Sequence record: OL770310
Source: Escherichia phage PSa2
DNA: 64,000 bases
Reading direction: 5' to 3' (one strand)
Positions 5,905 through 63,567 of the stretch are shown here, piece by piece (position 1 is the stretch's first letter; the number at the start of each line of letters is the position of its first letter). The notes below the pieces were generated by a model. That model ran no database searches. It was given only the letters and a program-made list of their open reading frames with translations, and was not told the DNA's origin. The position numbers and the translations under genes were made by a program.

Positions 5905-8235
5905 TTACAGGTTACAACCACCTGATGCACAACCTGCTGCTTCTTCACCAGCTCCACCACCATTTTCAGTGTTGAAGTTAGCGTAGTACCAAGTTTTCCA
6001 ACCGTACTTAACAGCAGTCATGAAATCACGAACTACTACTGGACCAGGAATGATTTCATTCTCAAACTTGGTGTAGTCATAGTACATATTTGTACTGATA
6101 GACTGACTGAAAAATTTCTGCATGGTTGCTACCCATTTGATCCACTCGATACGATCTACATCATAAGCCAGTTTATAGCTCATTAATGTATCCCAATTAG
6201 TTGCACCTGGAGCAATTGCAATTACTTTATTCACTGCACTACCCTTGATAGATACGATCTTACGAGGCGGTTCGATAGAGTTAGTAACACCTAGCAGTAC
6301 AGAGGAACTTTCACCTGGCATCTGAGCAGTCAGAACAGAGTTACGCATACCATATTTCAGAATATCTGCACGCAGAGATTCCCAATCCATTTCTAGACCT
6401 ACAGTTACCAGTTCATCAACAGTTTTCTTATACGTGTCGATTACCAGAGTTCCTTGTGAAGGCTTAGTACGATTAAACCAGTCACATGCACCCTGTTCTT
6501 TGGCCAGACGTACAGAGGCTTTGTGCAGGAAGTAGGACAGCTTTTCAGCTTCACGGTGAATCCAGTTACGTGCTTCAACACCTTCGTAAGCCAAACCTTC
6601 TGCTGCCATTGCACCTGCTGCGTTCATCAGACCAATACCAACGTTACGACGTTTCTTAGCCGTGTATTCCATAGTTGGGAATGGATAATCCTGAATCTCA
6701 ATGATTGTATCAACGAATTTCAGAAGGATGTAGCAAGTTTTCTCCCATTCAGCCAGAGATTCCATGCGGCCTAGTACAACACCACCTAAGTTACACAGAG
6801 ATACTTCACCAATATCTTCTGGACGCATATCGTCTAACTGATCTTGGGTTTTATACAGTTCCGTAACGTGATGGAATGGACGGGTTGGCTGAGTAATTTC
6901 AACACAAAGGTTGGTCATACGAATCGGGTCAAGGAAGTTACCATGACGGTTAGATTCACCAATGTGATGAGCATACATACGCCCTGTTTCCATACGGATA
7001 CGTAACCAAGTATCTAGGATTTCTTTTGCAGAGATTCTAGGAGCTGCTGGAATTGTTTTTCCTTCGTGGTCGATCTTTGTAAGAGATGCCACACGTTTCT
7101 CCGCTGCCACGTAGATTTCTTCAAACTTAGCCTCATCTTCACCATAAAACGCTTCATGAACTTCTGGTGCGTAGAAGTAGGACATTAGCGTAATATCTTC
7201 GTTTTTCAGGTAACGTTTTAACAGAAGGTTGTTAAAGCTCAGAGAATAATCCATCTTATCGATTTTATTCTCGTCTGTAGCACGTTGCTGCTTAACCTGC
7301 ATCAACTGAATGATTTCAGGATCGAAGTATGGATAAGACACAGTAGCAGAACCGCCACGGGTTTGCTGAGTGTTAGCTTTTACTGAACGGTCAATGTGTC
7401 GATAATATGGCAGTTTTCCGGAATGCGGGAATGCCCCATTTCGCACCGGATCAGCAATTGATCGGCTTTCAAGATGATACCCGATTCCCGCTCTGGCTGC
7501 GACCATTTTGAAGACGATATGCTCGGCTGTGTCGATTGAATCGAGGGTATCAGTACTATCAACAAGACAACAAGAAGCAAAACCGCGGTCGCTGCTCCTA
7601 AGACCCACGAGAGGTGGAGTCGGCACGTTGATTTTATGGAGTGACATTGCGTTGTAGAGGTCGATTGCATCGAGAATTGTCCAGTTAGGTTGAGATAACA
7701 TCGCCATTGCCATACCCATATAGGCAAACTGCGGGGTTTCATAAATTTCACCAGTTGCAATATTACGACGAGAATACTTGTCGAAGAACTGTTTCAGTCC
7801 ACCACTGGTGAATAAACGATCACGATCATGATCAATAACTTGGTTCAGAGCGTCAAACTGATCATCGCTAATCCATGCACTCATGTCTTCCCAAGCGCCT
7901 GCACGAACCATATGATCGTGGAAGAAACGCAGAGAAGGAGGTTCAAAGGAATCATATAGGCGTTTACGCATCTGCGCAAGACGTAATTCCTTTGCTACAG
8001 TATCATATGCTGGGTTGTCTTTGATAAGACCTTCAGCGGCTTTAATTAACACATCTTGGAGTGTATCGGAGTCTACAACACCTTTGGGTAGATTTTTCAG
8101 GGCAGCCATAACTACGGCAGACCAACTTACGTCAGTATCTTTACATGCCCATGCAGCCCAATCATTGAGTTTTTCAGGAGCAAAGTCCTGAACAGTACCG
8201 TCACGTTTAATTACTTTTTCGATGCGATGGCTCAT
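5905..8235 (-). CDS. nrdA: ribonucleotide reductase class Ia large subunit (ORF track start 8295; SD-supported start 8235)
   Basis: ATP-cone-like N-terminus (VIKRDGTVQDFAPEKLNDW), barrel motifs, C-terminal Cys pair (CASGGCNL). AAGGAAA SD precedes the Met at 8235. Confidence 0.9.
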   Translation of the reverse strand: MSHRIEKVIKRDGTVQDFAPEKLNDWAAWACKDTDVSWSAVVMAALKNLPKGVVDSDTLQDVLIKAAEGLIKDNPAYDTVAKELRLAQMRKRLYDSFEPPSLRFFHDHMVRAGAWEDMSAWISDDQFDALNQVIDHDRDRLFTSGGLKQFFDKYSRRNIATGEIYETPQFAYMGMAMAMLSQPNWTILDAIDLYNAMSLHKINVPTPPLVGLRSSDRGFASCCLVDSTDTLDSIDTAEHIVFKMVAARAGIGYHLESRSIADPVRNGAFPHSGKLPYYRHIDRSVKANTQQTRGGSATVSYPYFDPEIIQLMQVKQQRATDENKIDKMDYSLSFNNLLLKRYLKNEDITLMSYFYAPEVHEAFYGEDEAKFEEIYVAAEKRVASLTKIDHEGKTIPAAPRISAKEILDTWLRIRMETGRMYAHHIGESNRHGNFLDPIRMTNLCVEITQPTRPFHHVTELYKTQDQLDDMRPEDIGEVSLCNLGGVVLGRMESLAEWEKTCYILLKFVDTIIEIQDYPFPTMEYTAKKRRNVGIGLMNAAGAMAAEGLAYEGVEARNWIHREAEKLSYFLHKASVRLAKEQGACDWFNRTKPSQGTLVIDTYKKTVDELVTVGLEMDWESLRADILKYGMRNSVLTAQMPGESSSVLLGVTNSIEPPRKIVSIKGSAVNKVIAIAPGATNWDTLMSYKLAYDVDRIEWIKWVATMQKFFSQSISTNMYYDYTKFENEIIPGPVVVRDFMTAVKYGWKTWYYANFNTENGGGAGEEAAGCASGGCNL

Positions 8236-9355: not shown

Positions 9356-9428
9356 AAATAACACTCCTATAGTGTACTTCGCTAACAGAGGATCAACAAA
9401 AAGATCTTGTTTATCAACTTACAAATAT

Positions 9429-9457
9429 ATTATACCAATATATGCGGGAGAAAGCAA
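9429..9457 (-). promoter_or_regulatory. sigma70-type promoter for phoH operon (TTGCTT-N17-TATAAT)
   Basis: Reverse complement reads TTGCTT, 17 nt spacer, TATAAT, then ATATATTTGTAAGTTGATAAACAAG resembling the plus-strand leader module. Confidence 0.55.
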
Positions 9458-9649
9458 CTACAATTTTAAATAAGCCTATGATATTGCATTTAAATAAAAA
9501 ATTTGCTTGCTTTTATTGGGAGATGTATGGTACTAGATAATCATTTTATATCGCGTACACGGGCGCGTGATTATACTATTTTTAATAGAGGTTGGCAAAT
9601 AAAATTTTTTGACTCAGATCAATTTACAGAATGTTATAGTAAAATATTG

Positions 9650-9678
9650 TTGACATCCGCCTTCGAATGAGTTATAAT
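9650..9678 (+). promoter_or_regulatory. consensus sigma70 promoter upstream of nrdD (TTGACA-N17-TATAAT)
   Basis: Perfect -35 and -10 hexamers with 17 nt spacer; AGGAGGG SD at 9697..9703, ATG at 9708. Confidence 0.65.
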
Positions 9679-9707
9679 AGTAGTCTTAGTTAGAGAAGGA
9701 GGGTATA

Positions 9708-13973: not shown

Positions 13974-14402
13974 ATGTTCGATAATCTTTTCATGAAAGAG
14001 GTAAATCCTATGCTCCTCAACTTCTGGCGTTCTCTCCCTAATGGTATGTATAATGAAACCATCAATCTGCTCAAGATTTGGTGTGAGAATAACGATATCT
14101 TCTTATCCTTTAAAGGCCCACTAGAGGAAGCTCCGTGTATTGGAGTTAGCGTGGATTTAGGGGAGGGAGTAGAAGAGATTGTAGACTGGAAAGAACTCGA
14201 TGAAATGGGTCTGGTTTTTGCCTTGAACCATAAGCTGTTTATGCCTGCAAATCACCGTCTTATTGTAAATTATCGCACTGGTGAAGCTCCTGCTTTCCAG
14301 GTAAATGAACGTGAGGGCTGGTCATATTCGCCCGAGGAAGTAAATGAGGGGATTCAGAAACTTCGTCGTTTCGGGTATATGATCCCAGGTTTAACTGCTT
14401 AA
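13974..14402 (+). CDS. hypothetical acidic protein, paralogue A
   Basis: 142 aa; shares W.ELDEMGLVFALN...TGEAP.FQV...GYMIPGL with the next ORF. Confidence 0.6.
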   Translation: MFDNLFMKEVNPMLLNFWRSLPNGMYNETINLLKIWCENNDIFLSFKGPLEEAPCIGVSVDLGEGVEEIVDWKELDEMGLVFALNHKLFMPANHRLIVNYRTGEAPAFQVNEREGWSYSPEEVNEGIQKLRRFGYMIPGLTA

Positions 14403-14411
14403 GGAGGCAGA

Positions 14412-14807
14412 ATGGAACAAGTATTTTGGCGTCAGATAGATCCTAGTTTGGTAGAGCGTGCTGAGGGGCTCCTTGCACGTTGGTTGGGGGTTGACAAGGT
14501 TAGTGTAACATTTCCGTTTACTTCTGTAACAGACCCTAGTGTAGGTGTCTTTGTGGACGAAGATGAAGATGATGGTTGGGAAGCTGACTGGAATGAATTG
14601 TCCAGCATGGGCTTGATTGTTGCCCTCAACTTCTCTATATTCCACCCACGTGGTTTAGCTATTACACGTGATCCCGAAACCGGTGAATCCCCTTATCTTT
14701 TGCAAGTAGAAGATGATATTTGGGAGTACACCGAAGGTATTCTCGAAGAAGCTAAAGGTCAATTAAATCGTATTGGGATCTATGTCCCGGGCCTAAATGA
14801 TGATTGA
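14412..14807 (+). CDS. hypothetical acidic protein, paralogue B
   Basis: 131 aa, net charge about -19 by hand count; WNELSSMGLIVALN...TGESPYLLQV...GIYVPGL. Confidence 0.6.
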   Translation: MEQVFWRQIDPSLVERAEGLLARWLGVDKVSVTFPFTSVTDPSVGVFVDEDEDDGWEADWNELSSMGLIVALNFSIFHPRGLAITRDPETGESPYLLQVEDDIWEYTEGILEEAKGQLNRIGIYVPGLNDD

Positions 14808-14898
14808 TTTTCATTAGCTCAATCCTGATTACCGAGTCATTTTGGCTCGGTTTTCTCTGTGCTCAAAGACACTGATAGCACCTTCGGAAAAATTTTAC

Positions 14899-14927
14899 TT
14901 GCAGGATGCTCAAAATCTTGATATAAT
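14899..14927 (+). promoter_or_regulatory. early promoter module with no ORF behind it (TTGCAG-N17-TATAAT)
   Basis: -35 TTGCAG 14899..14904, -10 TATAAT 14922..14927, leader ATTTATATTGAATTGAGAGACATT; no start codon in the expected position. Confidence 0.5.
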
Positions 14928-15423
14928 ATTTATATTGAATTGAGAGACATTAGTAAAAATTGATTTTGCTAATTTTTCTTGTTTACAATCCGCAATACGG
15001 AACAGTTAGGCTGCCCCATTAAGGGTTGTTTTAACTATTACTAGTGTTTATACTGCATTAGTTAATTATCAATTAAGTGATCTGCGTACCCTGAATTCGG
15101 AAAGGTAAATCCAAACCGTGCATATTTAGCTCGTTATATAGGCAGAGCTTTATATGGGGGTGCGAACGAAAAGAGCAGCGAATGGTGACACGTCCAGTAG
15201 CCACCTACCAATAGGATAGTGAGGGCAATCAGAATCGGCTTAGCGGCCAATGACCTAGGTTCTGATCTGGATAAGAGTTAAGAGAGCGCAGCACTGAGGT
15301 ATGATAACTTATTCATACTGCTTGATGATGATTAATGTTTGTGTAAATGGTAGTAATAGTTGTTCTATTCTTTTGAATAGTCCTAAAGAAAGATATTCGA
15401 ATAACCAACATAGGAGTATTGTT

Positions 15424-18213
15424 GTGTTCTCAATCCTACAAGGCCACGCAGGATTTTCCAGAGATAAAGCTACTGGCATCTGGAAAGAGATCAAAGTGGA
15501 AGATTATACCTTTGCAAAGCGATTCTCTAAAGAGCATCCAGAAGGTAAACCAGCTTCCATGCCCTTCAAATTTGATGTACTTGAAGAACTTGACCCGCAA
15601 AACCTTGCTGAAATGTTACCTATCATGCGTCGTCTTACCAAAGACCCGCATATTGTAGCTATTCGGGGTAAATGTCTAGCTCCAAAAGATAATGTGCGTC
15701 GTACCAGGGGAAACTTTAACGTATCCAATCCTAGTCATATTATTGCTATGGACGTGGATGGTATTGTAGATACTGGTGGCTATGACAAGTTTAATCTTGT
15801 TGGCATGGCACGTCATATTATTAAGATGTTGAATAGTATTAGTGAGGATATGTTTCCTCTTGATGCAGGGTTTATTGCCCATGCATCGTCTTCGGCTGGG
15901 TTAAAACCAGGTATCCGAATGCACTTAATGCTAGAATCTAATGTCAAGGTAACGCAGGGACAGTTAAAGTTCTTATTTACATCTATCAATGATAGTAGTA
16001 AGCAAAAGTACGGCTTTGATATTGCTGACTTAGCTTATTATTCTTCTGTTCAGCTTCACTATTTCGCAGATCCCTTATTTGATGATGGTATAGTCGATCC
16101 GTTTAAAGCGGAGAATAAACCACGTCTTGTGTATGTTAAGGGTTCGAAGGTAAATCTACCTAATAACCTAGTTGACTTTGAAACAACTAGAGGTGAGTTT
16201 AAAGAAGAGTTCTACTCCTTACTTGACCAAATTAAAGGCAAGAAGGCTGCATCTGATAAAGTGGAAGAAACCATCAGCGAACTAGAAGAAGCTGAGGATG
16301 GAGTGTACCTGCGTATTATTCCAAAACTTTATCACAGAGCGTTAGAAGATGGTGTTGACTTTACGTGGTTAGAACGTGAGATTAAACCAGCTTTATCTGA
16401 GTATATTGCGACTAAAGATAATAGTCGTAATATTCAAGATTACTTTAATAACGGTCGTAAGCAGGCTCTCAAAGCCTTTGTAAATAACTCCAAACGTGAG
16501 ATTCCACCAAACTTAAAAGGTGTACCATTAAAACGTCTAGACACAGATTCTCCACCAGAAGTTCCATACCTGAAAATTAACATTGTACCACCAAAAGGAC
16601 ATTTAACATTTGTTAAGGCAAGTCTTGGTACGGGTAAAACTACAGCAGTAACTAAGTGGCTAGATGCAGGTGTTCTTCCAGGGAACTTTATTGCAATCAC
16701 AAATACTAGAGCACTTGTATCTTCTAACGCGAAGAAATTCGGTGCTGGCCAGTATGATAAGTCAGTTGATATGCTGAACTTCAAACGTGGTGCTATTGAT
16801 CGTATGTCTTCAACTATTCACTCTATCCATAAGTTCAAGAGCTTTGTGGGTCAGATTGATACGATCTTTATTGATGAATGTGACGCAGTAATGAATGATC
16901 TGTTATTCGCTCCGGTTGTTAAAAACCGTCGTGAATGTATTCAGGTTCTTCGTGATATCCTTATTACTGCTAAAACTGTTATCTTATCTGATGGTGATAT
17001 CAGTGCAGAAACGATTGAAGCCTATGGTTCTTTGATTGATTTTGATAAACCAGTTGCATTCTATAATCATCACCGTAAAATGCTGGCGAAAGCTCACGCT
17101 TATGAATTCCCTGACGAATCCAGTATTTGGGTTGCACTTCAAACATCTCTAGAGATGGGTGAGAAGTCAATCCTAGTATCTGACTGTGGACCAGATGAAC
17201 TGAATGAAAAGGGAATGGCGTTACGTCGTAATACTGGTGCGTTAGTTAAAGAAATTCACTCAAACTCTACGTCTGATATAGATATCCGACGTATTCTGGA
17301 TTATACAACTAATGAGCTAATTGATCAACAGATTGATTGTTTGTTATGTAGTCCATCTGTAACGAGTGGTGTTGACTTTAACTATTTTGATAACGTATTC
17401 GTAATCACTAGAACCTCAAACCAAGCGCCAAACATGCGTTTTCAAGCAATCAGGCGCGACCGTGGTGCTCAGAACATTTATTATTTTATTGATAAATCTA
17501 CGAGTGGATTCTCTGCGGGTTCCGAGCAATATAATATTGACGAGGGTTGGATTGAGTTAGCTCAGCAACTGTACGCACGCCGTCGTGAGCTGGAATCTAG
17601 AAACTATACTAGTACTTTGCGCTATTATCTGCTTGATCAGGGTGCAACTATCGATATTTTCAGCGAAAGCTGGGGAACTATCGAAGGTGCAGGAAAAGAG
17701 TATACAGAAGAGCGAATCAAAGCTATTTTGCACTCAACTCCTGAATATTGTGCACCACGTCATGCAGATGCCTATGAAGCCAAGTTACTTCTGGTTCGCT
17801 ATTATCATCTGGATTCTATTAAAGATGTAACAGTGGAACACGTTGAACAGTATATCAAGGATAAACCAAACGATAGAGCTGCATTCTTCCATAAGATGCA
17901 CGAGATGTTCTGGGAAGATATTAAGAAGTGTTCAAATGTAACAATCAAACCGTTTATTGAAGCTCTTAAGAATAAGAAGAAGGATTTCTTCCTTAAGACA
18001 GGTCAGAGCGCTAACCCAAAATATGCTCGTATGTATCTTGGCATGATGGGTATCGGTAAAGATCTGGATACGGAAAAGATTGTGGACTGGTACAGAACTT
18101 ACTGTAAGATCGAATGTATGCCGATTCCAGTTAAGTTTATGACAGATGAAGAACGTCAGATGCATGAGGAAGCTCTTGCTGAATTGGGGGCTAGAAATGA
18201 CAGCGAAGAATAA
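15424..18213 (+). CDS. SF2 helicase, replication-origin-binding-protein type (ORF track start 15301; GTG 15424 with TAGGAG SD preferred)
   Basis: Walker A KASLGTGKTTAV, Walker B IFIDECDAV; ~930-970 aa. First ~40 track codons are low complexity. Confidence 0.7.
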   Translation: MFSILQGHAGFSRDKATGIWKEIKVEDYTFAKRFSKEHPEGKPASMPFKFDVLEELDPQNLAEMLPIMRRLTKDPHIVAIRGKCLAPKDNVRRTRGNFNVSNPSHIIAMDVDGIVDTGGYDKFNLVGMARHIIKMLNSISEDMFPLDAGFIAHASSSAGLKPGIRMHLMLESNVKVTQGQLKFLFTSINDSSKQKYGFDIADLAYYSSVQLHYFADPLFDDGIVDPFKAENKPRLVYVKGSKVNLPNNLVDFETTRGEFKEEFYSLLDQIKGKKAASDKVEETISELEEAEDGVYLRIIPKLYHRALEDGVDFTWLEREIKPALSEYIATKDNSRNIQDYFNNGRKQALKAFVNNSKREIPPNLKGVPLKRLDTDSPPEVPYLKINIVPPKGHLTFVKASLGTGKTTAVTKWLDAGVLPGNFIAITNTRALVSSNAKKFGAGQYDKSVDMLNFKRGAIDRMSSTIHSIHKFKSFVGQIDTIFIDECDAVMNDLLFAPVVKNRRECIQVLRDILITAKTVILSDGDISAETIEAYGSLIDFDKPVAFYNHHRKMLAKAHAYEFPDESSIWVALQTSLEMGEKSILVSDCGPDELNEKGMALRRNTGALVKEIHSNSTSDIDIRRILDYTTNELIDQQIDCLLCSPSVTSGVDFNYFDNVFVITRTSNQAPNMRFQAIRRDRGAQNIYYFIDKSTSGFSAGSEQYNIDEGWIELAQQLYARRRELESRNYTSTLRYYLLDQGATIDIFSESWGTIEGAGKEYTEERIKAILHSTPEYCAPRHADAYEAKLLLVRYYHLDSIKDVTVEHVEQYIKDKPNDRAAFFHKMHEMFWEDIKKCSNVTIKPFIEALKNKKKDFFLKTGQSANPKYARMYLGMMGIGKDLDTEKIVDWYRTYCKIECMPIPVKFMTDEERQMHEEALAELGARNDSEE

Positions 18214-18430
18214 AAAGTGGGAAACAAGGAAGTTTCCCGTAAAAGAACGTAAAACTTCTGTTTACGATACTGCGGAGAAACTATGTAGGGTTGTACCACC
18301 TCGTCTCGCTGGCATCCCTAACGTCTCCATATGGTTACTTAAACAACGGAAGACTCGTGTGTCTCTTCGCATTGGCTTTGAGTTAGATAAAGTCTATGCT
18401 GAACTTGCTTCTTTGCTCAAAGAATCATAA
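18197..18430 (+). CDS. hypothetical small basic protein (track ORF 18146..18430)
   Basis: ORF overlapping the helicase stop; MTAKNKKWETRKFPVKERK... Confidence 0.3.
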   Translation: MTAKNKKWETRKFPVKERKTSVYDTAEKLCRVVPPRLAGIPNVSIWLLKQRKTRVSLRIGFELDKVYAELASLLKES

Positions 18431-18439
18431 AAATTTTAT

Positions 18440-18468
18440 TTGCTTTCAGGAAAAATTTTCTGTATAAT
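18440..18468 (+). promoter_or_regulatory. early promoter module (TTGCTT-N17-TATAAT)
   Basis: -35 18440..18445, -10 18463..18468, leader AGATTCATAAATTTGAGAGAGGAG, ATG 18500. Confidence 0.65.
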
Positions 18469-18499
18469 AGATTCATAAATTTGAGAGAGGAGTTTAAAT

Positions 18500-36513: not shown

Positions 36514-36520
36514 CAATAAA

Positions 36521-36555
36521 CCCCAGTGGACAATCCACTGGGGTTTTCTTTTATT
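36521..36555. terminator. bidirectional rho-independent terminator at the early/late convergence point
   Basis: CCCCAGTGG-ACAAT-CCACTGGGG hairpin flanked by an A-run and TTTTCTTTTATTT. Confidence 0.75.
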
Positions 36556-36596
36556 TAGTAAGGAGTTGTTTTACTAATTCCTTTATTTTATTAATC

Positions 36597-36611
36597 TTTT
36601 TTTTTTTTTTT
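36597..36611. repeat. T15 homopolymer followed by TGCATTTTGCATTTTGCGTTTT repeat
   Basis: Direct count of 15 consecutive T at 36597..36611. Confidence 0.8.
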
Positions 36612-36792
36612 GAGAGGGTGCAAAACGAACCTCTTGCATTTTGCATTTTGCGTTTTCATATTGTACATAAGAACAGCCTAAGAATCAGTGAACTGTTAAC
36701 ATAGCAGAACACGCGTTGCGTTGCTAGGATAATCAATGTTCAGGCTTGTTTCGCAGCAATATTTTTCAGTGACAGATTGCACTCCACTTATA

Positions 36793-63196: not shown

Positions 63197-63269
63197 TTTC
63201 GGATTCGGAACTGTATTATTCTTTATCTTTGTACTCTTTTGGTTAGCAGCTATGGCGGGGTGGTTATAA
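63084..63269 (+). CDS. small membrane protein (alternative start 63135)
   Basis: C-terminal TM helix FGTVLFFIFVLFWLAAMAGWL. Confidence 0.3.
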   Translation: MQLLGYSKYQDYRRSKEMSDDNRRKNRRGEVYESWINSFGFGTVLFFIFVLFWLAAMAGWL

Positions 63270-63372
63270 TGGAAGTAGTAATTATTGCTTTACTAGTTGT
63301 GGTAATTATCGGGCAGTGCATTTTAGATAACCACCTAGCTCGTATCGAACGTAAGCTGCTGGGAGATAAATA

Positions 63373-63567
63373 ATGGATTGGTTAGGACTTATTACACTTG
63401 TAGTATGGATTGTCTGGATTGTTGGATACATGACGTCACATCGTAATCGTATACAGAAGCTAGAGGATAAAGTCACCCAACTAAACATTAATATGGATAA
63501 GTTACTGGACTCCCAACGTAATGATCGGGCACGTATTCACCAACTTGAGAGGGAATTAGATGTTTAG
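63373..63567 (+). CDS. small single-pass membrane protein
   Basis: N-terminal TM LGLITLVVWIVWIVGYM then coiled-coil-like charged tail. Confidence 0.45.
   Translation: MDWLGLITLVVWIVWIVGYMTSHRNRIQKLEDKVTQLNINMDKLLDSQRNDRARIHQLERELDV

Follow-up and report, generated by a model that had tools for sequence, protein, structure and literature searches.

The question raised by this locus is what occupies a long gap, free of conserved genes, between a promoter and an essential replication gene. The stretch under study, 64,000 nucleotides (nt) of Escherichia phage PSa2 (record OL770310; hereafter the window), belongs to a T5-like phage (Demerecviridae) of the Epseptimavirus group; the region shares 99% identity with Epseptimaviruses of the Salmonella phage Stitch type and with Escherichia phage SpoonbillGilly. 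The gap, positions 14808-15423, is flanked by a DUF7415 gene upstream and the T5 D2 helicase gene downstream, and it is the longest stretch of the window without an open reading frame (ORF) of at least 70 aa. An earlier note, made from the sequence alone, had offered three candidates for its content: a long structured 5' untranslated region (UTR), a non-coding RNA, or a replication origin. The analysis shows that the + strand of the gap encodes a large structured RNA, that a conserved early promoter precedes it, and that in PSa2 it forms the 5' portion of the D2 transcript. As kinds, structured leaders and large non-coding RNAs of phages are known; this RNA constitutes a new family.

The evidence for the RNA comes from the way in which its sequence has changed. 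When 13 leaders from five lineages were aligned with plain MAFFT and a consensus was derived with RNAalifold, 64 consensus pairs were obtained, 29 of them with compensatory changes; thus, the covariance analysis across related phages that the earlier note had called for favors the structured 5' UTR and non-coding RNA among its candidates, with strong covariation on the transcribed strand. Paired cells make up 94.6% of the total, versus 34-47% when the partners are slid by 1-3 columns. The covariation score is 0.429, versus 0.09-0.10 for slid partners and 0.212 for shuffled ones, and none of 500 shuffles reaches the observed value. Coding controls from the same genomes, taken through the same pipeline, gave covariance terms of 0.2-1.5 versus 8.3 for the leader, and 24-29 compensatory cells versus 89. 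Pairs of close genomes contain 6, 5 and 1 double compensatory substitutions, counts that are to be read with the bias of two-sequence RNAalifold against broken pairs in mind. The + strand is taken to be the RNA strand because both the excess of G.U cells (160, versus 13 A.C cells) and the fold energies point there: the consensus fold has -29.4 kcal/mol and 64 pairs on the + strand versus -19.8 kcal/mol and 33 pairs on the - strand, and the minimum free energy (MFE) of the + strand, -144.6 kcal/mol, has a z of -4.15 against shuffles, versus -2.68 for the - strand. Taken together, helices on one strand have been kept by compensatory substitutions to a degree above the controls, as expected of a conserved structured RNA. 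The layout of the locus is as follows (SD, Shine-Dalgarno sequence).

14831..14856, + strand: intrinsic terminator closing the upstream operon of two DUF7415 genes, with a 9-bp hairpin and a T run, from a terminator scan
14888..14928, + strand: T5-type sigma-70 early promoter, with an A/T tract, -35 TTGCAG (14899-14904), a 17-nt spacer and -10 TATAATA (14922-14928)
14934..15380, + strand: conserved structured RNA core of about 447 nt, closed by a long-range helix and holding nine or more supported helices (MFE, RNAalifold, pair statistics)
15381..15423, + strand: linker to the helicase gene with the SD AGGAG (15412-15416), predicted to be mostly unpaired
15424..18213, + strand: T5 D2 gene ('replication origin binding protein', T5.108), 929 aa, GTG start

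The only ORFs within the gap are of 33 aa (+ strand, 14842-14943), 43 aa (- strand) and 38 aa (- strand), and the approximately 490 nt between the promoter and the D2 SD contain no conserved ORF. The gap is thus non-coding, as the earlier note had it; the statement there that no ORF of 60 aa or more occurs before the helicase goes very slightly too far, with one trivial exception, a 61-aa minus-strand TTG ORF at 15309-15494 that overlaps the helicase start at the 3' edge of the gap. The further proposal that the reading frame from ATG 15301 is non-coding up to a true start at GTG 15424 is borne out. This 41-codon extension is not conserved, in that relatives have in-frame stops or no start codon; a 1-nt indel within it separates close relatives; and the ATG, GTG or TTG with which all relatives begin the gene aligns with GTG 15424, which has AGGAG at 15412-15416 before it. 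In most GenBank records the D2 gene begins at the equivalent of GTG 15424, giving 929 aa. Several others annotate ORFs of 33-50 aa in the gap, or start the helicase at the equivalent of 15301. That there are small protein genes in the gap, or an N-terminally extended helicase, is nevertheless highly improbable, given that no ORF in the gap is conserved, that the two versions of the leader described below, types A and B, differ by non-triplet indels, and that ATG 15301 lies inside a stem (P7) without an SD. The spurious small ORFs and extended helicase starts of many GenBank records are corrected accordingly. It is also very unlikely that the gap is a non-functional spacer, or the scar of mobile elements (an HNH endonuclease, a 97-nt insertion), whose structure is fortuitous. 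The site is indeed an insertion hot spot, and the central 300 nt diverges faster than neighboring coding sequence (column majority 0.73 versus 0.85-0.88); however, helices have been kept by compensatory change across lineages that can no longer be aligned, the loop motifs are invariant, length and promoter have been kept across genera, and the insertions avoid the helices.

The elements of the fold, in order along the RNA, are listed here.

14942..14982, + strand: P1, a 5' hairpin in which CAUUAGUAAAA (14948-14958) pairs with UUUUGCUAAU (14964-14973), flanked by GAGAGA and the U-rich UUUUUCUUGU (14973-14982)
14997..15017, + strand: conserved motif ACGGAACAGUUAGGCUGCCCC, with a small CAG/CUG hairpin inside, seen as invariant alignment columns
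15033..15063, + strand: 5' strands of the long-range closing helices P3 (AACUAUUACUA, 15033-15043) and P4 (15056-15063)
15079..15087, + strand: 5' strand of P5, GAUCUGCGU, pairing with 15286-15294
15228..15266, + strand: P6 hairpin, with outer stem AUCAGAAUC/GGUUCUGAU (15228-36/15258-66), inner GGCU-UAGC-GGCC and an asymmetric 3' internal loop
15286..15294, + strand: 3' strand of P5, GCGCAGCAC, pairing with 15079-15087
15298..15319, + strand: P7 hairpin GGUAUGA/UCAUACU (stem 15298-304/15313-19), with ATG 15301 inside the stem
15330..15361, + strand: 3' strands of P4 (15330-15337) and P3 (UAGUAAUAGUU, 15351-15361)
15365..15380, + strand: P8, the 3' hairpin CUAUUC-UUUU-GAAUAG, with no U run after it and hence no terminator

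The best-supported helices are P3, P4, P5, P6 and P7. The P3 partners are wholly different in type B (AACUGUUAC/GUAACAGUU), My1 (GGUUAUUAUAUAAC/GUUAUAUAAUAACC), DU_PP_V (AUUAUUAUACAG/CUGUAUAAUAAU) and PR1 (CUAACCACAUA/UAUGUGGUUAG), and each of these versions, like that of type A, pairs over 9-14 bp across about 300 nt. In P5, five of the nine pairs show compensatory changes, with CUGCG/CGCAG becoming CUGUG/CACAG in T5_ev219 and KEY, CUACAC/GUGUAG in DT57C, DU_PP_V and My1, and CUAGAA/UUCUAG in Spivey. In P6 such changes affect seven of eight pairs; no two of ten lineage variants share an outer-stem sequence, and seven of the eight that were folded are predicted to take the same shape. The inner loop and stem of P6 bear CUUAGCGG (15239-15246), which is invariant in all nine of the examined enterobacterial lineages with a full-length RNA. 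P7 has compensatory changes in 3/3 pairs, and its loop in other lineages is (A)AGUUGCCAYC; P8 is replaced by CUAUC/GAUAG in Spivey and by CUUUCC/GGAAAG in DU_PP_V. The small CAG/CUG hairpin of the ACGGAACAGUUAGGCUGCCCC motif becomes CGG/CCG in Erwinia phage KEY, and in a Sugarlandvirus variant GAGUAU/AUACUU replaces the closing helix GAGCAU/AUGCUU. The stem of P1 differs in DU_PP_V (UUAGACAA/UUGUCUAA), Spivey and KEY, and locus L031 has a U.G to U-A change in it. The stems of the P6-P7 block vary in length, and MAFFT does not bring them into register.

Short motifs also persist across lineages, namely ACnGAACAGUnnGGCUGC, GAGAAGUG, CUUAGCGG and GUUGCCA; ACnGAACAGUnnGGCUGC, CUUAGCGG and GUUGCCA are invariant as single-stranded or loop motifs. 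In IMG/VR and metagenomes, the motif ACGGAACAGUUAGGCUGCCCC is specific to T5-like contigs. The idea that ACnGAACAGUnnGGCUGC is a widespread module was discarded because its non-T5 matches in these collections lack a downstream CUUAGCGG and are hence due to chance: 11 of the 13 non-T5 IMG/VR matches checked fall within open frames of more than 150 codons, and an Rfam scan of the contigs with such matches yielded tRNAs only. A kissing interaction of CUUAGCGG with a 5' UUGCUAA was likewise dropped, since by inspection the partner is missing in Spivey, KEY and PR1. P1 together with its U-rich tract (14948-14982) has the look of a weak, A/U-rich intrinsic terminator placed 15-50 nt past the predicted start; the GenBank record of Stitch labels P1 'terminator', and the combination could be an attenuator.

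Upstream of the RNA, the terminator hairpin ACCGAGTCA...TGGCTCGGT at 14831-14851, followed by TTTTCT, is kept in all of the Tequintavirus and Epseptimavirus relatives aligned. The promoter that the earlier note had placed at 14899..14927 (TTGCAG-N17-TATAAT) has proved correct in its coordinates and is found at the same place in all lineages. It fits the T5 consensus TTGCTT-N17/18-TATAATA quoted in the AKFV33 record; from the spacing, transcription is predicted to start near A14934, and the GAGAGA leader element typical of T5 promoters follows at 14942-14947. A generic sigma-70 scan missed this promoter because its -35 element matches TTGACA at just 3/6 positions. The same scan found 8 sites, versus 8.3 in shuffles, and thus no excess; since it does no better than that, a consensus match by itself is weak evidence for a promoter. 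What makes the promoter credible is its occupation of the same place in every related lineage, together with a natural replacement, after which homology resumes exactly at GAGAGA. This replacement is a cassette that carries an HNH homing-endonuclease gene of 453 nt together with a T5-type promoter for it, TTGCAAGGGAGTATTATTTTATAGTATAAT (840-1292 in L004, S132; present also in L007, L008, L009 and L002, in phages of both RNA types). It sits between the terminator and the RNA, at the equivalent of window position ~14852-14940, where it replaces the native promoter, and this promoter swap leaves the RNA intact from GAGAGA onward.

The order terminator, promoter, ORF-free leader of 480-770 nt, D2 start is shared by Tequintavirus, Epseptimavirus, Sugarlandvirus, DU_PP_V, My1, KEY, and the Stubb-like and Providencia phages. 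Within Tequintavirus and Epseptimavirus the leader hardly varies over its first ~110 nt and its last ~90 nt; its central ~300 nt comes in two versions, A and B, which can barely be aligned and have the island GGCUUAGCGGCC in common. The variant of the RNA is co-inherited with the variant of D2 in all 28 of the type A and B genomes checked. The identity of D2 in the other lineages to that of the window, over the portion given, is as follows.

Klebsiella Sugarlandvirus: 73% (N-terminal 300 aa)
Pectobacterium DU_PP_V: 69% (N-terminal 300 aa)
Pectobacterium My1: 65% (N-terminal 300 aa)
Erwinia KEY: 73% (full length)
Proteus Stubb-like phages: 62% (N-terminal 300 aa)
Providencia PR1-like phages: 55-56% (N-terminal 300 aa)

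Used as an nhmmer profile, the 13 leaders have no match in the Providencia, Proteus and Vibrio loci. The sequence of the leader has thus largely turned over, since a profile of the closer leaders finds nothing in the Proteus and Providencia versions, and the homology of these latter RNAs is judged by architecture and the CUUAGCGG hairpin. In L192, a Providencia-type metagenomic phage (1335-1600), the RNA ends in a terminator, GUCUC-UUAGUU-GAGAC plus a U run, and direct repeats CCAACTTTTTGCACCCAAAAT flank the segment inserted there. In place of the RNA, L190 (1233-1600) and L191 (1175-1600), whose D2 identities are 52% and 46%, have a divergent intergenic region that is AT-rich (25-31% GC); the two share the motif CGCGCCTKAGACCA, L190 has a tandem GAATTTTTGAAAG repeat, and the region could be a different kind of control or origin region. 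The more distant metagenomic relatives of the helicase have no gap at all.

In some phages an optional insertion of 97 nt lies right after P1, between the equivalents of window positions 14973 and 14974 (it is not present in the window), with flanks formed by a TTTTTCTT duplication. It is found in L005, L006, L024, L026 and L041, in RNAs of both type A and type B, and forms an independent stem-loop, so that it behaves like an expansion segment. Across 51 phage records it is 94-100% identical and single-copy, and the idea that it is a multi-copy miniature inverted-repeat transposable element was rejected because it is single-copy in every one of them.

The Vibrio Demerecviridae encode D2 homologs of 27-34% N-terminal identity, and upstream of these lie gaps of 500-1100 nt with no called genes, a promoter before them, 22-28% G and 15-20% C (L044 1006-1716, L045 631-1731, L046 1073-1800, and L194-L197 upstream of 1601). 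Motifs such as GUGACUAACC, UAAGAGUG and ACGUAGAGA are locally conserved among them. MAFFT and RNAalifold gave no consensus for eight of these gaps, which are too divergent, and homology to the enterobacterial RNA is not demonstrated; they may hold a related or analogous RNA. So far, the RNA is restricted to Demerecviridae of Enterobacterales.

The element has no match among catalogued RNA families. None of the 4227 covariance models of Rfam 15, which include riboswitches, T-box, RNase P, tmRNA, group I/II introns, ROOL, GOLLD, OLE, HEARO and RNAI, matches anywhere in the window at the gathering threshold; at E<=10, the interval 14700-15500 gives three chance-level matches of 11-16 bits against thresholds of 43-60, and seven related loci give no match. 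ARAGORN finds no tRNA or tmRNA gene in the window. A resemblance of 15229-15256 to the 3' end of E. coli M1 RNA was set aside, given that its CAGAA lies in a covarying stem and is not conserved elsewhere, and that no RNase P model scores. The literature searched contained neither a description of the RNA nor a T5 transcriptome, although its coverage was incomplete and this is absence of evidence only. The SD has a probability of 0.82 of being unpaired in the window RNA, and neither SD nor start codon lies in a conserved helix, as would be the case in an SD-sequestering leader or a riboswitch expression platform; ensemble probabilities lend no support to a switch between SD and anti-SD pairing. 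We infer that the RNA does not act by simply hiding the ribosome-binding site.

The GC content of the region is 0.32 in its flanks and 0.48 in its center, in agreement with the remark in the earlier note that it is not simply AT-rich. Two tandem DUF7415 paralogs, 13974-14402 and 14412-14807, precede the RNA; the second of these, a homolog of T5.107, ends where the gap begins, at 14807, and its counterpart in Klebsiella phage Spivey is labeled 'RNA-binding protein'. Three further stretches of the window, of 280-360 nt (9365-9707, 36514-36792 and 63197-63559), likewise lack an ORF of at least 70 aa on both strands. The next promoter downstream, AAAAATTTATTTGCTTTTAGGAAAATTTTTCTGTATAATAGATTCATAAATTTGAGAGAGGAG at ~18420-18495 (L001 ~6720-6795), stands before the following helicase-annotated gene and is almost the same as the classic strong T5 promoter of expression vectors.

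Insight into what the RNA might do begins with the protein encoded after it. Pfam PF02399 matches D2 residues 391-533, the position reported for the T5 D2 bipolar helicase (PMC3632103); D2 amber mutants make no DNA, and D2 has been proposed as the replication initiator (PMC3632103). The N-terminal third (residues 1-380, window 15424-16563) has no Pfam or PDB sequence match. Its AlphaFold2 model, built from a 28-sequence alignment, has a predicted local distance difference test score (pLDDT) of 88 and includes a pRN1-like helix bundle; almost all of the top 50 Foldseek matches to the model, RepB' among them, are primases and polymerases of the archaeo-eukaryotic primase (AEP) type, with weak E-values (best, 9e-4). 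The D2 alignment has invariant D110 and D112 and a motif S-x-S-x-G...H167. By this modeling the parts of D2 are an AEP-like primase-polymerase N-terminus, a helical bundle, and a superfamily 2 (SF2) helicase resembling herpesvirus UL9, and D2 is probably a fusion of an AEP primase-polymerase with an SF2 helicase.

We give roughly even chances to the reading that the folded RNA works together with D2, as a protein-binding platform for D2 synthesis, mRNA fate or enzyme recruitment. Host RNA polymerase would transcribe the RNA (~14934 to ~15380) from the T5-type early promoter and continue into the D2 gene; the functional unit would be the folded RNA, rather than the DNA or a peptide, and the invariant loops would serve as recognition sites for a phage protein or as tertiary contacts. 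Acting as a binding platform, the RNA would tune D2 synthesis or the fate of the mRNA in cis, or recruit the newly made primase-helicase. Its job is most likely tied to D2 because the element stays beside D2 across the family. In the window, which has no terminator or other good promoter between the two, as in most lineages, D2 can be transcribed only through the RNA. Several points weigh against this reading. Same-sense single-stranded DNA would give a covariation identical to that of RNA, and the transcription start, 3' end, processing and abundance of the RNA are all inferred. The apparent link between the RNA and D2 is one of synteny, in a phage family whose gene order is conserved anyway. 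In the Stubb-like phages a perfect TTGACA-17-TATAAT promoter follows the RNA and precedes D2; the same interval holds a terminator, a promoter and a 56-aa ORF in L192 and a 111-aa ORF in L193. Three lineages, L189 (which has a short leader without CUUAGCGG), L190 and L191, encode D2 without the full RNA. Prediction leaves the SD accessible and gives it different partners in different lineages, and the sole consensus SD/anti-SD helix, which joins the SD to the U-tract (14976-82/15410-16), covaries in one of its seven pairs.

Two further readings keep the RNA and assign it other work. It is possible, though rather unlikely, that the locus is a transcription-dependent origin, or that the RNA is a primer, much as with ColE1 RNA II, the T7 primary origin or T4 oriF, with the transcript forming an R-loop or primer. 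A version of this reading, to which we would give an equally modest chance, has the RNA or the displaced same-sense DNA present the CUUAGCGG hairpin to D2, the putative AEP primase-helicase, for loading or priming. The element always adjoins the gene for the initiator, near the middle of the genome. It is promoter-driven, structured and ~500 nt in size, as is RNA II, and the central domain is purine- and G-rich, as are the corresponding Vibrio phage gaps. AEP primases such as RepB', which is among the Foldseek matches of the modeled D2 N-terminus with its predicted pRN1-like bundle, recognize DNA hairpins. D2, moreover, is essential for T5 DNA synthesis and is its proposed initiator (PMC3632103). 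The features of the DNA, however, give no support to the candidate origin of the earlier note. No iterons or initiator boxes (at least three direct repeats) are present, just five two-copy families of 9-15 nt at chance level; there is no GC-skew switch, since the cumulative skew climbs monotonically through the locus; and no AT-rich unwinding element beside repeats, with a switch in strand composition, occurs at the locus. The two AT-rich segments, 15033-15063 and 15330-15361, pair with each other as strands of covarying RNA helices, and the sole strong inverted repeat, I1 (15033-15053 with 15341-15361), is the RNA helix itself. No promoter-like site was detected on the minus strand within 14934-15423, the nearest being at 15531-15503, and the RNAI model of Rfam has no match. 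The lineages L189, L190 and L191 manage D2 without the full RNA. Recombitron editing of T5 shows one strand preference genome-wide, which its authors read as dominant unidirectional replication from one genome end, and this bias argues against a dominant central bidirectional origin (PMC10055335).

The same modest probability attaches to a stable, stand-alone RNA that would act in trans and be unrelated to D2, for example in host takeover, as a protein sponge or anti-defense decoy, or as a ribonucleoprotein scaffold, and, no more strongly, to the corollary that it is cut from the D2 mRNA or terminated before it, its adjacency to D2 being just conserved gene order. With at least nine supported helices in 450-770 nt, the RNA is far larger and more complex than known translational operators, and ROOL and GOLLD are examples of further large RNAs, of unknown role, that phages carry. 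The separate transcription signals in Stubb-like phages and L192, and the ORFs in L192 and L193, indicate that the RNA can be a separate unit; a terminator-like hairpin also stands between the gap and D2 in Vibrio phage 70E34-1a, and the SD is not occluded. On the other hand, the window and most lineages have no terminator between the RNA and D2, which has no other good promoter; the adjacency persists where the upstream neighbors change, as in the Vibrio phages; and the variants of the RNA and of D2 go strictly together in inheritance.

The initiation of replication in T5, a classical model phage, is still poorly understood, and no functional RNA of such size, tRNAs aside, is known to have been assigned to it. 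The work supplies a testable object, an RNA of 450-770 nt that is under structural selection and fixed beside the essential D2 gene in all nine of the carrying enterobacterial lineages examined; neither the family, nor its size, nor its fixed association with a putative AEP primase-helicase has been catalogued. An RNA that regulates D2, or recruits it, would be a partner of unusual elaboration for a replication initiator. In the case of a primer or origin RNA, the T5 origin would have been located, and should the RNA or the displaced strand be the start of T5 replication, the origin would be RNA-structured and transcription-activated, of a kind not described for tailed phages. If it is independent, it would be a new family among the few large structured phage RNAs.

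Several known systems come close to the RNA. The operators of T4 genes 32 and 43 and the 5' UTR of E. coli rne resemble the T5-like RNA in being 5' untranslated parts of an mRNA, here that of a replication protein, whose encoded protein could bind its own leader. In contrast to them, the T5-like RNA is several-fold larger and more complex, its SD is not consistently paired, and in some lineages a promoter, terminator or ORF parts it from the gene. ColE1/pMB1 RNA II is likewise a structured, non-coding transcript of ~500-550 nt that is made from a sigma-70 promoter within a replication module, and in both cases the RNA fold, not a protein, would be the functional entity; in the RNA II type the promoter lies ~500-600 nt before the initiation point, and here a promoter and a structured RNA are present, with any initiation point a putative one. 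Unlike RNA II, the T5-like RNA has no detected antisense promoter of the RNA I type and no Rfam match, and it runs into a translated gene with its own SD, with no origin features downstream. The T7 primary origin and T4 oriF/oriG share with it a promoter beside replication genes, and ssiA/ssiB of RSF1010, which serve the AEP primase RepB', share a conserved hairpin with an invariant loop (here P6) beside a gene for an AEP-type primase; by this circumstantial analogy P6 is a candidate ssi-type primase recognition hairpin. Those origins and ssi sites, however, need no conserved 450-nt fold closed by long-range helices, and for the T7 and T4 comparison the T5 strand-bias data argue against a dominant central origin. 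The pRNA of phi29, compared here via the negative Rfam search only, is also a phage-encoded, early-transcribed structured RNA that is part of a protein machine, but it is of 174 nt, belongs to a packaging motor and has no link to a helicase gene. Finally, the 'ornate' RNAs ROOL, GOLLD, OLE and raiA share with the T5-like RNA a length of 0.45-0.8 kb, many helices, strong covariation at low sequence identity and a phage context, being themselves often borne by phages or prophages. Their covariance models do not match it even at E<=10 and their motifs are different; and, rather than lying near tRNAs, the T5-like RNA is fixed directly upstream of a primase-helicase gene.

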